The position numbers and the translations under genes were made by a program. The notes beneath the pieces are model-generated. The model searched no databases and was not told the DNA's origin. It was given only the letters and a program-made list of their open reading frames with translations. A stretch of DNA of 36,035 nt from a virus. Within the stretch, counting starts at the first letter, position 1; every line of letters begins with the position of its first letter. Below are positions 22,508 to 35,946 of this stretch, piece by piece. Location of the stretch: positions 1 through 36,035 of IMG/VR virus record IMGVR_UViG_3300045988_105737. One strand, given 5' to 3'.

Positions 22508-23662
22508 TTAAAAATCAATATATTTAGCAAATTTTTCTGCCGTTTTCTCTCTAGCTGATTGTGTAACATGAGTATAGATATCCATGGTTGTTTTTATGTT
22601 TTCATGGCCAAGTCTATCTTGAACCTCTTTAATGCTTGCTCCACTCTCAAATAATAACGATGCATGAGTGTGTCTGAATCCATGCGGTTTGATTGGTGGA
22701 AGATCGTATTTTCTCAAAAAAGACGGAAGAAACTGGTCAATGTATTTGTTTATGAAATTTCCGTTATTTCTATGAAAGATGAATCCGTCGCCTTTATCTA
22801 TGTTTTTACCTTGTTTAAATAATTCTTTTCTGAGTTCGTTTTTCCACGTTCTAAGAGCGTTTAAAGTGGTATCGTCAACTGATATAGTACGTATGCTTTT
22901 ACGTGTCTTAGGCGTTTGTATATGCAAGCCTCCGTTACTATCAATCGCGACAGTTTTATCTATCGTAATGGTTCCATTGTTAAAATCCACGTCAGACCAT
23001 TTTAATGCAGCTAACTCACCTTTACGGATACCAGTGAAAGCAAGAACTCTAAATACTGCATACATTTGATATGTAGAATGTTTCTTTAATGTTTCTAGGA
23101 ATGTTCTTAATTGTTCTTTAGTGTAAAAATTCACTTGCTTATCAGTATCATCTAAAGTCTTTCGTTTCTTCGAAATTATAACGTCGTTCATAGGATTAAC
23201 TTTAATTTGTTTCATCACTTTGGCATAATCAAAAATCCGGCGTGTTAAGTTGATAATATTATTATAGTTTTTGGAAGTTTTGAACATTCGATTAACTTGT
23301 TTTTGACAAAATGCAGTATCTACCTTATCTACTCTTAAAGCTCCAAAATAGGGGAGTATTTGAACGTTTATAATATTGTTTTGAGTGTATGCAGTACTTT
23401 CCTTAACGGTCGTTTTGTATTGCTCAAACCACATTTTATAAACCTCCTCAAAGGTCATAATTTTGCGCTTGCTTGTAGGTAGTCCGTTTTCCATAACCTC
23501 TAATTCAAGTCTTGATAATGTGGCCTTTGCCTCTGCTATTGTCCTAAATCCACGCCTTGTTGTTCGGCGCTGTTTTCCGGTTACTGGGTCAGTTCCTAGA
23601 TACAAGTTAAACATGTAAGCCTTAGAGCCGTCTTTTTTAATGTATTTTTTGATTTTAGTCAT
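22508..23662 (-). CDS. int: Tyrosine integrase
   Basis: 384 aa. C-terminal catalytic region has HGFRHTHASLL and GHENIKTTMDIYTHV (R-H-R-Y type). N-terminal SAM-like domain. Confidence 0.92.
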   Translation of the reverse strand: MTKIKKYIKKDGSKAYMFNLYLGTDPVTGKQRRTTRRGFRTIAEAKATLSRLELEVMENGLPTSKRKIMTFEEVYKMWFEQYKTTVKESTAYTQNNIINVQILPYFGALRVDKVDTAFCQKQVNRMFKTSKNYNNIINLTRRIFDYAKVMKQIKVNPMNDVIISKKRKTLDDTDKQVNFYTKEQLRTFLETLKKHSTYQMYAVFRVLAFTGIRKGELAALKWSDVDFNNGTITIDKTVAIDSNGGLHIQTPKTRKSIRTISVDDTTLNALRTWKNELRKELFKQGKNIDKGDGFIFHRNNGNFINKYIDQFLPSFLRKYDLPPIKPHGFRHTHASLLFESGASIKEVQDRLGHENIKTTMDIYTHVTQSAREKTAEKFAKYIDF

Positions 23663-24193: not shown

Positions 24194-24535
24194 CTATTTC
24201 AAGTCGTTACGTGTGCCTCTCATCAATCGCCTCATAAACTCTAAATCCTCTTTTGGAATCTGTCTGCCTTCGTAAGTAAAGATAATGCTATCGTCCTCAA
24301 TATCGGCAGTCTTGACGGTTTCAGTTTGAGTGGGTTTTCCGAGCAGGTAATCAACAGAAACACCGTATAATTCAGCCAATTCTTTCAAAGTTTCAAGATC
24401 CGGTTCTCTGCTACCGTATTCATAATTAGCATATGTTTGCATTGTTTTTAAACCAATTTTCTTTGATACATAAGTTTTATTCCAACCTTTACTTTCTCTT
24501 AGATTTTCTAATCTTTTACCTAATTCAACCGACAT
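24194..24535 (-). CDS. CI/ImmR-like XRE-family repressor (113 aa)
   Basis: HTH WNKTYVSKKIGLKTMQTYANYEYGSREP. The ATG at 24535 lies 8 nt after gggagg, while the upstream ATG at 24550 overlaps that SD. Confidence 0.85.
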   Translation of the reverse strand: MSVELGKRLENLRESKGWNKTYVSKKIGLKTMQTYANYEYGSREPDLETLKELAELYGVSVDYLLGKPTQTETVKTADIEDDSIIFTYEGRQIPKEDLEFMRRLMRGTRNDLK

Positions 24536-24569
24536 AGGATAACCTCCCATCTAAATTTATATACTATAT

Positions 24570-33097: not shown

Positions 33098-33376
33098 ATG
33101 AATTCAAAAACAGATATCAATTGTAACGATGCTTTTGCTGAATCTGGACTAGAAAAAAGCAAGTGTAAAAAAGTGACGGTTTATCTAGCCGACGGTAGAG
33201 AAATGACGACCGTTAACGTTTTGAACGTTAGCAAATGCGATGGTGGGTGTGGCAATCTTATGCTCGAACTTTATGGCAAAGGCAAAGCAGGAAAAAACAG
33301 AAGGATGGTTTTTAATCTAGCAAGCAATAACATCATTGGATATTCAATAGATGATCAAGAAACAAGCAAATCTTAA
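33098..33376 (+). CDS. Small protein, paralogue family B copy 1 (92 aa)
   Basis: Shares C.KV ... LA(D/N)G ... C.GG ... F(N/D)L ... N(I/V)(I/V)GYSI.D with 34595..34798. Confidence 0.55.
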   Translation: MNSKTDINCNDAFAESGLEKSKCKKVTVYLADGREMTTVNVLNVSKCDGGCGNLMLELYGKGKAGKNRRMVFNLASNNIIGYSIDDQETSKS

Positions 33377-33481
33377 AGTTTGACCTTAACAAGTCGTAAA
33401 ACTGTTAAATGTTGATGTGGTTGTTTGAACGGTATACATTCACAAAAAAACGTAAATCAGGATCTCACAAATAACGACACA

Positions 33482-33746
33482 GTACAGGCTTGGTATCTGT
33501 CAGAGGATGCTGAGTCATAGGCGGTAAAGATGCAAGGAAGCTGTAAACAACAAAATTTATTAAAAAGGTAGGTGTAATTTTCCCTTTCTCATTAATTCAC
33601 ATCGCAGCAACCAAGCAAATTTATTGCTAAAAATTAGGGTTTATAAAACCTACTTAATCTTTTAAATACGTTACAGGCCAAATAAATTGAGAGGAGTAAA
33701 CCTCTGTAACATGTTCTTCGTAAGCCTGTAACACCACCTTGCATCT
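33482..33746 (+). ncRNA. Candidate structured RNA / regulatory element inside the 455-bp ORF-free island
   Basis: Nested perfect complements: 33528-33537/33737-33746 (10 bp), 33670-33678/33724-33732 (9 bp), 33690-33694/33701-33705 (5 bp), and 33566-33573/33648-33655 (8 bp with one G-U). An upstream duplicate of the two 5' strands sits at 33483-33507. Strand and ends are not established. Confidence 0.35.
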
Positions 33747-33831
33747 GCGAAATTTGAGCCAGTCACACGTTTTGAGGGCGTGGCAAGGTATTTATACCGG
33801 TATAACAATAAAACGATAGGAGAGTGTAAAA

Positions 33832-34326
33832 ATGGAGTTTATAACAGCGATTCACAAGTTAGAACAATGGAGACCAATTATGGAATGGGATGATCATATA
33901 AAGGAACTACCAGACGAGTTAAAAGAAAGCTGGGATAGAATACTGCAAGCTAGAGATGTAGGATTAGTGGACAGGTTAGGACTAACACAAGTTGAAATTA
34001 GAGAAATATCCGAGCTGATTAATAATGATGTGCTGCCAACTGAAGCATTTAGAAGATATGGGTTCAAGTATGCGAAGCGTCTAGCCAAGAGATTGGGCAT
34101 GGAAGATGTGATTGATAATTATTACAGAAGAGTTAAGTCATATTGTTTGATAGATGTTGTTACTAAAGAGAAACATCAGTTTTATAGGTTGCAAGACGTG
34201 GCTGAGTTTTTAGGGAGAAAAGATTATAGATCATTGCCACAATACATTGATAGAGCTTCATTCATTCCAAGAACAAATTACAAGATTTATAGATATAGAA
34301 CATTCAAGAAAAGAAAGAGGTTTTAA
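33832..34326 (+). CDS. Hypothetical basic protein (164 aa), possible DNA-binding regulator
   Basis: SD taggagag. HTH-like stretches (LGLTQVEIREISELI; FYRLQDVAEFLGRKDY) and a very basic C-terminus (YRYRTFKKRKRF). Confidence 0.5.
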   Translation: MEFITAIHKLEQWRPIMEWDDHIKELPDELKESWDRILQARDVGLVDRLGLTQVEIREISELINNDVLPTEAFRRYGFKYAKRLAKRLGMEDVIDNYYRRVKSYCLIDVVTKEKHQFYRLQDVAEFLGRKDYRSLPQYIDRASFIPRTNYKIYRYRTFKKRKRF

Positions 34327-34519: not shown

Positions 34520-34594
34520 TAAGATATGGCAATGCTAATATTTTGGAAACTAGAACGCTTTTTAGAAAAACTTAAATAAGAAGGATTGATTAAG

Positions 34595-34798
34595 ATGGAT
34601 AATTGTGTAAAAGTATTTTTAGCAAATGGGGAAGCATTTATTTTAGATGATGTTTCAAGCACAAAAGAATTATGCAAAGGTGGTAAGACAGTTCTCTTAG
34701 TTAGCCACTTTGATGACGAAGCAAATCAAGAAATGATATCATGTTTCGATCTTGGTAAAGAGAATGTTGTTGGCTATTCAATAAGTGATGAGCTTTAG
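34595..34798 (+). CDS. Small protein, paralogue family B copy 2 (67 aa)
   Basis: The ATG at 34595 lies 9 nt after aagaagga. See 33098..33376 for the shared pattern. Confidence 0.55.
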   Translation: MDNCVKVFLANGEAFILDDVSSTKELCKGGKTVLLVSHFDDEANQEMISCFDLGKENVVGYSISDEL

Positions 34799-34990: not shown

Positions 34991-35141
34991 GTATGAATAC
35001 TGTAAATTAACAAGCATTGATGGCACTTTGCTTTATCGAGACAATATTATCTCGAAACATTAATAAAAAACGTACCCCTACAATAAAGAAGTACGCAGAT
35101 CATATTAGTTGACACGATTATATCATAAGGAGCGTGGGCTT

Positions 35142-35582
35142 GTGGAAGATATGTTATTAGATTTACCTCAAATTGATTATGATGGAACAGCTGATAATGT
35201 TGTAAAGTTTCTAACAAACAGAAGTTACTATCCTAGATTGTATGATATATACATGCAAGCTAATCCAGAAAAATTACAGAGCCCAAGTTTGAGTGACATG
35301 CCTGGAGGTAGTGTTGGAAACAGCAACGAAAATAAAATGATCAAATATTTGTATGCGAAGGCGATTGTAGATGGAGTTAGGCAAACGATAGATAAGGGAT
35401 CACATGAGTTAAAAGTAGTGTTTAGTAACATAACTGGAGAGACAAGCGCAGCTGAAGCAATGCAGATGTTACACTACGAGAAATCAAGATACTACTTAAT
35501 TAGAAAACAAGTTTTAAATGAATTTGCTGATATTTTAGAAGTCCAAAATCTACATTGTCCAGATCTGCACATTTATATTTGA
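35142..35582 (+). CDS. ArpU-family late transcriptional regulator
   Basis: LLDLPQIDYDGTADNVVKFL ... QSPSLSDMPGGSVGNSNENKM ... YEKSRYYLIRKQVLNEFADIL follows the ArpU/RinA-like pattern. Last gene before the late operon. The GTG at 35142 lies 9 nt after aaggag; the ATG at 35151 is an alternative start. Confidence 0.78.
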   Translation: MEDMLLDLPQIDYDGTADNVVKFLTNRSYYPRLYDIYMQANPEKLQSPSLSDMPGGSVGNSNENKMIKYLYAKAIVDGVRQTIDKGSHELKVVFSNITGETSAAEAMQMLHYEKSRYYLIRKQVLNEFADILEVQNLHCPDLHIYI

Positions 35583-35914
35583 ACATTGCATAAAAGTAAA
35601 GGCTAAAAGGATTTTTTGGAAACGTACATTGGAAACAAAAAGGATGCGATCAAACGAAAAAGGTGGTATTATATTATTGTCGAAAGATATATAAATGATT
35701 AATTCTTTCATTTCAATTCCAAAACTTAATAATTAGCTTCAAAGACAGCGAGACGAGTTTAACTCGCCTCTTACGTGGTGTGTAGGAACACTGCTTTGTG
35801 TGTATGACACTATTCATACCGTAGCTACAGCGTTATGTAGATATAATTGCATTTTCGATTGTTATTCATGTTGGTTTTTCAATAACTATCATTTTTCATT
35901 TTATTCCTTTTACG

Positions 35915-35946
35915 AAGAACAGTTTTAACGACTGTTCTTTTTTTTA
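35915..35946 (+). terminator. Rho-independent terminator immediately upstream of the late operon
   Basis: Stem aagaacagt (35915-35923) / actgttctt (35931-35939), loop tttaacg, and a T8 run. The T-run forms the start of the window (bases 2-9). Confidence 0.8.

Follow-up and report, generated by a model that had tools for sequence, protein, structure and literature searches.

The 36,035-nucleotide (nt) viral sequence analyzed here (IMG/VR record IMGVR_UViG_3300045988_105737, positions 1 to 36,035; hereafter the window) is a complete temperate siphovirus-type genome of metagenome origin, and positions 33377-33831 form a 455 bp island without genes for which an initial annotation, made from the letters alone, had proposed a structured RNA. 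Covariation strongly supports that proposal, and we are highly confident that the island specifies a structured RNA on the + strand that contains the salivarius-1 motif. The RNA, ~310 to 430 nt in all, is found in Lactobacillus-type temperate phages, and a core of ~310 nt (33482-33791) is kept at 67-90% identity in ~90 phage, prophage and metagenome loci. Salivarius-1, catalogued as a 56-nt orphan, is only the 3′ end of this conserved RNA; what is new here is a further ~250 nt with covarying structure, for which Rfam has no matching model.

Searching Rfam with cmscan placed salivarius-1 (RF03030) at 33736-33791 on the + strand at 72.6 bits (gathering score 50; E = 3.5e-14), with an alignment over model positions 1-56 of 56 in which no non-canonical pair is marked. 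The window segment is a full-length member of the family, above threshold, with three stems around a junction: salivarius-1 stem P1 (33736-42 / 33783-89), stem P2 (33745-48 / 33758 and 33760-62) and stem P3 (33766-71 / 33777-82). The GAUUUGAG loop, the UUGAG loop, and the AUC and UCA junctions are all present, and UUGAG occurs in both loops. Among 73 sequences, conservation of UUGAG and UGAG is at least 97%, the stems are 97.9-100% paired (98.8% for stem P1), and 12 of 17 pairs have changed on both sides; all related loci tested exceed the Rfam threshold, with scores of 51.6-82.5 bits. Salivarius-1 is one of 224 motifs reported by Weinberg et al. 2017 (PMC5737381), and a preprint (bioRxiv 10.64898/2025.12.30.696949) cites its crystal structure, PDB 9G4Q, an RNA-Puzzle. 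In the literature searched it appears only as that motif and that structure, with no function described. The suggestion that the island might be a ROOL or GOLLD RNA was excluded by the same search: neither covariance model matched, salivarius-1 was the sole family at or above its gathering score across the whole window (Rfam 15), and the other matches in 33200-34000 at E ≤10 were two snoRNA chance hits. ROOL and GOLLD are large, ornate and abundant stand-alone RNAs of Lactobacillales prophages (PMC12286853). Like them, the RNA described here is large, multi-domain, prophage-borne, without an assigned function and found in the same bacterial group; unlike them, it is about half their size, shares no sequence or structure match with them, has no tRNA island as a neighbor in the window, and forms part of an operon, immediately ahead of a gene's ribosome-binding site.

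Degenerate patterns for the salivarius-1 core retrieved 17 IMG/VR loci, one GTDB genome contig and 22 metagenome contigs, and 69 IMG/VR loci were recovered with a pattern for the 5′ hairpin identified here; no nucleotide similarity to the island, or to 24 kb of the window, was found in 50,697 cultured phage records. Wherever the flank suffices, homology spans the whole core, and the genes flanking it change from locus to locus: the element travels as a cassette that is tied to neither neighboring gene. RNAalifold on MAFFT alignments and the window's own minimum-free-energy (MFE) structure gave one architecture, consisting of hairpin H1, the long-range domain P2, hairpin H3, helix P3 with its internal hairpin P3a, and salivarius-1.

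The decisive evidence for a structured RNA is comparative and lies beyond the window alone. For the 3′ module, which comprises P3 and salivarius-1, a covariance-model alignment of 73 distinct sequences has 98.1% of its cells paired and 26 of 32 pairs changed on both sides, and none of 500 shuffles reaches any of the measures used. Helix P3 (33670..33732, + strand) is the 9 bp helix of the initial annotation, GTTACAGGC (33670-78) with GCCTGTAAC (33724-32), which is perfect in the window and extends to as many as 11 bp in relatives; it encloses the P3a hairpin (GGAG 33693-96 / CUCU 33702-05) and also holds the conserved UUCUUCGU. In the same 73 sequences, P3 and P3a are 96.5-99% paired, with 11 of 11 and three of four pairs, respectively, changed on both sides. 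Up to six pair types are seen at single positions of the module (for example, UA 26, AU 17, GC 13, GU 3, UG 3 and CG 2), which argues for repeated independent events and not for one inherited haplotype. A leader peptide after the GGAG hairpin was considered and rejected by eye, as UUCUUCGU lies in different frames across loci.

The 5′ domain, H1 plus P2, was assessed in a plain MAFFT alignment that had not been fitted to any structure. There, 94.2% of cells are paired, compared with 23-54% in slid controls, and 11 pairs have changed on both sides; a covariance-model alignment of 62 distinct sequences gave 94% pairing, with both sides changed in 12 of 33 pairs. H1 (33487..33516, + strand) is a 12 bp hairpin (33487-98 / 33505-16, loop 33499-33504) followed directly by a near-invariant junction, AGUCAUAGG; in the plain alignment it is 99.3% paired, with five pairs changed on both sides, and it contains two conserved G·U pairs. 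P2 (33520..33628, + strand) is built from P2a (33520-28 / 33620-28), P2b (33531-33 / 33615-17), P2c (33536-37 / 33611-12) and P2d (33540-44 / 33604-08). It is 91% paired in the plain alignment, with six pairs changed on both sides, and pairing is kept in both of the classes UGC-AA-GG and UGCUGAU. The interior of P2 is A-rich and includes a conserved AAAGGnnGUG. This near-invariant, purine-rich segment (window 33565-33577, AAAGGUAGGUGUAA, with an equivalent in all loci) resembles a ribosome-binding site with a start codon; the "open reading frame" (ORF) that follows varies across loci, from a mere start-stop pair up to 15 codons, and is not conserved as coding. The segment might be a ribosome- or protein-binding site. 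Hairpin H3 (33637..33651, + strand; GGGUUU 33637-42 / AAACCU 33646-51) is part of the window's MFE structure but optional, being absent from about a third of the loci; where it varies, GGAUUU/AAAUCC and GGGU/ACCC still pair. Mutual information, used to look for pseudoknots or tertiary pairs, revealed haplotype linkage within P2 only. Inspection by eye also spoke against a kissing contact of the H1 loop (UCAAA) with UUUGA loops, because the H1 loop varies and the salivarius-1 loops are invariant.

Cells with G·U outnumber those with A·C by 236 to 14, and by 385 to 23 in the wider 5′ set, with several G·U pairs invariant; the folded strand is therefore +, the sense of all neighboring genes. G·U accounts for 12-20% of paired cells, a share typical of RNA rather than DNA, and this bears directly on the possibility that the island acts as DNA, either as a + strand single-stranded DNA (ssDNA) initiation or origin-like signal or as an array of protein sites or operators, the latter having been offered initially as an alternative. 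The island is orientation-specific, cassette-like, non-coding and heavily paired, as are the single-strand origins of rolling-circle replicons, and both the perfect 10-14 bp palindromes at its 3′ edge and the presence of CGGTATA at both of its ends would be in keeping with such a role. In phages with DnaD-type initiators, however, the origin is usually located in or beside the initiator gene, and the island has neither iterons nor a clear AT-rich unwinding region. Exact CTGTAAC/GTTACAG boxes, proposed at five places, occur at 33670, 33704 and 33726 only; at 33541 there is just the 6-mer CTGTAA, and at 33482 there is no match. Across loci only two of the boxes, the P3 strands, recur, and what they keep is complementarity rather than sequence. 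Moreover, invariant G·U pairs and G·U pairing at this level would be destabilizing in DNA, and salivarius-1 is a curated RNA family with a solved RNA crystal structure, PDB 9G4Q. We consider a DNA-level element improbable.

The absence of a credible ORF from 33377-33831 was confirmed, in that the longest candidates span 31-45 aa and an independent gene caller also left the stretch empty. Taken by itself, the window contains three perfect inverted repeats of at least 9 nt in the island where 0.56 are expected (1000 dinucleotide shuffles, P = 0.025), a modest excess over chance, and the + strand fold of 33482-33791 has a z-score of -2.31, with none of 100 dinucleotide shuffles as stable. The modesty of this excess, together with stop-free stretches of 70-93 codons in some homologues, might suggest a decayed protein-coding gene or chance inverted repeats in an AT-rich spacer. 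We attach almost no weight to either. The stop-free stretches differ in frame and strand between loci and have no start codons, gap lengths lack 3-periodicity, and conservation and compensatory changes track helices and not codons; neither a conserved reading frame nor a protein homologue was found for the island. A decayed gene, which had been raised at the outset as one of the outcomes that would count against an RNA, is thus rejected on the frames, strands and gap lengths of the homologues.

The particular fold first drawn for the island was a 220-nt three-way junction closed by 33528-37 / 33737-46, in which duplicated helix strands would serve as a riboswitch-like switch. Its parts are present in the window: the outer pairing of AGATGCAAGG (33528-37) with CCTTGCATCT (33737-46), 10 bp and perfect; the perfect AGAGG/CCTCT hairpin (33690-94 / 33701-05); the AGGTAGGT / ACCTACTT arm, 8 bp including one G·U; the agcaa/ttgct hairpin, whose exact place, 33614-18 / 33624-28, lies within the range originally given; the duplication of TACAGGC..AGAGGA; and the palindrome at 33787-33803. 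Two of the five proposed helices, the 9 bp helix and the hairpin inside it, covary and are retained above as P3 and P3a, and the other three do not hold. The outer helix is 63% paired in the alignment, with zero compensatory changes. Its 3′ strand is also the 5′ strand of salivarius-1 stem P1 (ACCUUGC, 33736-42), so that the two helices are mutually exclusive and formation of the outer one would destroy that stem. Its 5′ strand has another partner, 33611-33617, within the P2 domain, which covaries and of which the strand AGAUGCAAGG is part. Loci of the L002 type are instructive in this respect, as a G-to-A change in AGAUGCAAGG is matched there by C-to-U in the P2 partner (UAC/GUA) and creates an A·C mismatch against salivarius-1, breaking the outer helix yet compensating in P2b. 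For the 8 bp arm, pairing is 61% and the two strands fail to occur together, and P2a takes the place of the agcaa/ttgct hairpin. Conservation is likewise lacking for the duplicated strands, and the alternative pairing that a switch would use reaches at least 7 nt in only 15 of 70 loci. None of the long-range pairs of this model appears in the MFE or centroid structures of the window. Although its helices are perfect in the window and a class of loci that we term alpha (about a third of the total) keeps 9-10 contiguous outer-helix pairs, we judge it very unlikely; the outer helix is possibly a lineage-specific alternative conformer in class alpha, and it is not a conserved feature. An inverted repeat that would close the entire island (33421-39 / 33790-808) was also tried and rejected, because the 5′ block is unchanged in loci that carry the TAGCTAGCTA palindrome and the arms therefore do not covary.

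The covarying RNA is modular. One 5′ domain is combined with one 3′ module in 62 loci, whereas nine loci carry two 3′ modules in tandem, head to tail and 2-22 nt apart, with each copy exceeding the Rfam threshold; the loci in which P3 and salivarius-1 are duplicated include L048 (4214-4504), L062 (5711-6000), L063, L085, L044, L056 and L068. Three weaker 3′ modules, each likewise above the Rfam threshold, are found in L061 (3663-4244), where an ORF is inserted after H1. In contrast to salivarius-1 as catalogued, then, the motif here can be repeated in tandem together with helix P3. Two further loci, L007 and L037, are natural deletion variants that lack H3 and all of P3/P3a (equivalent to 33628-33734 of the window) and keep H1, P2 and salivarius-1. 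The ORF in L061 (4205-4747, − strand of the locus) encodes a predicted membrane protein of 180 aa, lies between H1 and the 3′ modules, and sits as if inserted into the P2 domain; the 180-kb contig that contains the locus probably carries host DNA.

The place of the element in phage genomes is constant. It follows small early ORFs and lies 0.5-1.4 kb upstream of an ArpU-like gene or a sigma-like alternative, and terminase comes after the ArpU-like gene in loci whose flank is long enough. The alternative, a 139-aa sigma-70 region-4-like protein, replaces the ArpU-like gene in the downstream regions of L009 (about +1.7 to +2.2 kb from the motif), L004 and L028, which argues that the element is tied to a place before the late regulator rather than to any single family of regulators. 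The next start codon is found 34-41 nt after the last module in 52 of 55 distinct loci, in front of several unrelated downstream genes. A scan revealed no sigma-70-like promoter in or next to the island, and inspection by hand of TTGACC-N17-TGTTAA and TATACA yielded poor -10 boxes only. Since no promoter or terminator of its own was found and a ribosome-binding site follows so closely, an internal leader of the early transcript is the simplest interpretation.

We propose that the RNA would be transcribed within a long early transcript and act in cis, as a leader or intercistronic element that would set the expression continuing into a block of small genes ending with an ArpU-type late activator, and that it would thereby help to time late gene expression. 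Such transcripts have precedents for the late-activator genes of related Gram-positive phages: in phage 80α, rinA is transcribed from the cI-cro region as part of one polycistronic early message, and phi55 ltrC gave similar results (PMC3753634). The effector may be a bound protein or other macromolecule as opposed to a simple terminator or a hairpin that masks the ribosome-binding site; a bound factor is suggested by the invariant UUGAG loops and the tandem-repeatable 3′ module. A cis-regulatory mechanism upstream of the late activator is put forward tentatively, at somewhat less than an even chance. When the structured RNA and its cis role are taken together as one explanation, we would rate the whole at about even, a compromise between the confidence due to each part. 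In position alone, and as a matter of general knowledge, the element is reminiscent of cis-acting elements such as lambda nut and HK022 put and of leader-derived regulatory RNAs such as the P4 CI RNA, which are also structured RNAs in early polycistronic transcripts upstream of a late-gene regulator, but it is much larger, shares no sequence with them, and has no identified terminators to override or protein partner. Similarly, the head-to-tail repetition of a structured module, here one to three times, recalls tandem aptamers such as the glycine riboswitch and protein-sequestering RNAs of the CsrB/RsmZ type; in contrast to these, no expression platform was found here, the downstream genes are of mixed class, and no ligand or protein has been identified. 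An assignment to the riboswitch or cis-attenuator class is not supported, since neither an expression platform nor a single downstream gene class was found.

Several observations weigh against a cis-acting RNA, or against the weight placed on the evidence for it. The first downstream ORF is of at least four unrelated kinds, and only the distal late-regulator gene recurs as a neighbor; a variable immediate downstream gene is unusual for a gene-specific cis-regulator, and it fits cis control only if the controlled unit is the whole block. No + strand terminator-like site was detected by scanning in or next to the island, and hence no attenuator terminator; nor was consistent sequestration of the ribosome-binding site by the 3′ end found, its predicted accessibility being inconsistent among homologues. 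Because the loci belong to mosaic phages that are related to one another, counting cells exaggerates how many independent events took place, and the alignments derived from covariance models (A4, A6 and A7) lean towards the model. Covariation and G·U asymmetry alone cannot separate RNA from + strand ssDNA. Finally, tandem modules and invariant loops would fit a trans-acting or sequestering RNA equally well.

It is also possible that the element is a stable trans-acting non-coding RNA, cut from the early transcript or made from an unrecognized promoter, which binds or sequesters a host or phage protein or assembles with itself, and whose position before the late block is incidental. A large multi-domain architecture with an invariant UUGAG loop twice per module, one to three tandem copies of the 3′ module as in protein-sequestering RNAs, and a cassette that is independent of both neighboring genes would all suit such an RNA; Rfam classes salivarius-1 as "Gene; sRNA", and the abundant ROOL and GOLLD RNAs discussed above stand alone in prophages of the same order (PMC12286853). 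Against this, scanning found no promoter or terminator belonging to the element, its 3′ end is tightly joined to the ribosome-binding site of the next gene (34-41 nt), and no target or partner has been identified. On balance we regard a trans-acting RNA as unlikely, although it deserves serious consideration.

The edges of the island differ from its core. On the 5′ side, loci that we call type I have a conserved non-coding block (33379..33482 in the window, + strand) which opens with TTGACC (33379-84) and includes a tentative hairpin, H0 (ACGGT 33429-33 / AACGT 33449-53, + strand), with one mismatch in the window; in relatives H0 varies from ACGGT/ACCGT to ACGTT/AACGT, with mismatched variants as well. 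This block occurs in most loci. Elsewhere, in type II and III loci, its place is taken by the end of an ORF that stops ~25-30 nt before H1. The TTGACC at the start of the block is strictly conserved but is not accompanied by a good -10 box; the block may serve as a promoter or a protein site, or may belong to the RNA.

On the 3′ side, a small hairpin or palindrome, P4 (33792..33805, + strand; UUAUA 33792-96, loop CCGG, UAUAA 33801-05), lies between salivarius-1 and the ribosome-binding site, and every locus has a perfect palindrome after its last module. Three palindrome types occupy this place, UAUACCGGUAUA, UAGCUAGCUA and UCUAAUCGAUUAGA, and the type tracks the class of the downstream gene. 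Variants of P4 (UUAUGCCGGUAUAA, UGGCUAGCUA, UAGCUAGUUA, UGGCUAGUCA and a 1-nt central insertion) all lead to a G·U pair on the + strand or to a larger loop, and for this reason we read P4 as a small RNA hairpin and not as a DNA operator, though the evidence is thin. The palindromes at this spot are 10-14 bp long (TATACCGGTATA, TAGCTAGCTA and TCTAATCGATTAGA, for example in the window, L009, L044 and L068), and each holds a 6 bp restriction-type site (ACCGGT, GCTAGC or ATCGAT); because palindrome type tracks downstream-gene class, the site appears to mark a mosaic junction. In the window, the ribosome-binding site (AGGAGAG) and the ATG at 33832 of orf164 follow (33817..33834, + strand), and orf164 opens the gene block whose last member is the ArpU-like activator.

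The gene order of the window is that of a temperate phage, with an integrase (22508-23662, − strand) and a CI-like repressor (24194-24550, − strand) followed by Rha, RecT and a PDDEXK nuclease, a DnaD-like initiator and a DnaC-like loader, a run of small ORFs, and the island. Four small ORFs on its 3′ side precede the ArpU-like transcriptional activator (35109-35582; PHROG 248), which is similar to the "ArpU-like protein" of Lactobacillus phage Lv-1, and terminase and the late genes are found at the start of the window. The closest cultured relatives are phages that infect Lactobacillaceae, with portal amino-acid identity below 45%. Salivarius-1 would be expected in Lactobacillus (Ligilactobacillus) salivarius-type genomes or prophages; IMG genome 637000143 may be that of L. 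salivarius UCC118, with L009 and L015 as its possible prophages. On either side of the island region, orf92 (33098-33376) and orf70 (34586-34798) look paralogous, as both match, by tblastn, the same parts of related loci (at 34% and 62% identity in L001). After the ArpU-like gene and before the late (terminase) operon begins, there are two terminator-like hairpins on the + strand (35775-35794 and 35914-35940), in a stretch where an activator-dependent late promoter would also be expected. Some relatives have tRNA genes within a few kb of the element (L004 8794-8866, L062 7094-7164 and L090 3041-3112); in the window, no tRNA gene lies beside it.

Salivarius-1, an orphan 56-nt motif with a solved structure, can now be seen as the last module of a far larger RNA with covarying structure. 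In phage genomes that RNA keeps to one position, with the replication and early genes on one side and the late-activator block on the other, and its 3′ module can be duplicated. The exact boundaries now available allow constructs for probing, cryo-electron microscopy and genetics to be designed, and the Rfam seed model can be extended. For temperate phages of lactic acid bacteria, the orphan motif thereby becomes a testable hypothesis on late-gene timing. In its boldest form, which we consider speculative and rather unlikely as a whole, that hypothesis would make salivarius-1 the repeatable 3′ module of a previously undescribed group of large (~310-600 nt) modular phage RNAs that, from within the early transcript, gate an ArpU/Ltr-type activator through a phage or host factor bound at the invariant UUGAG loops. 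In a less likely variant, the RNA would multimerize through the self-complementary loop of P4, as ROOL and GOLLD assemblies do. Were the main form true, these RNAs would act as timers of the switch from early to late genes in temperate phages of Gram-positive bacteria.

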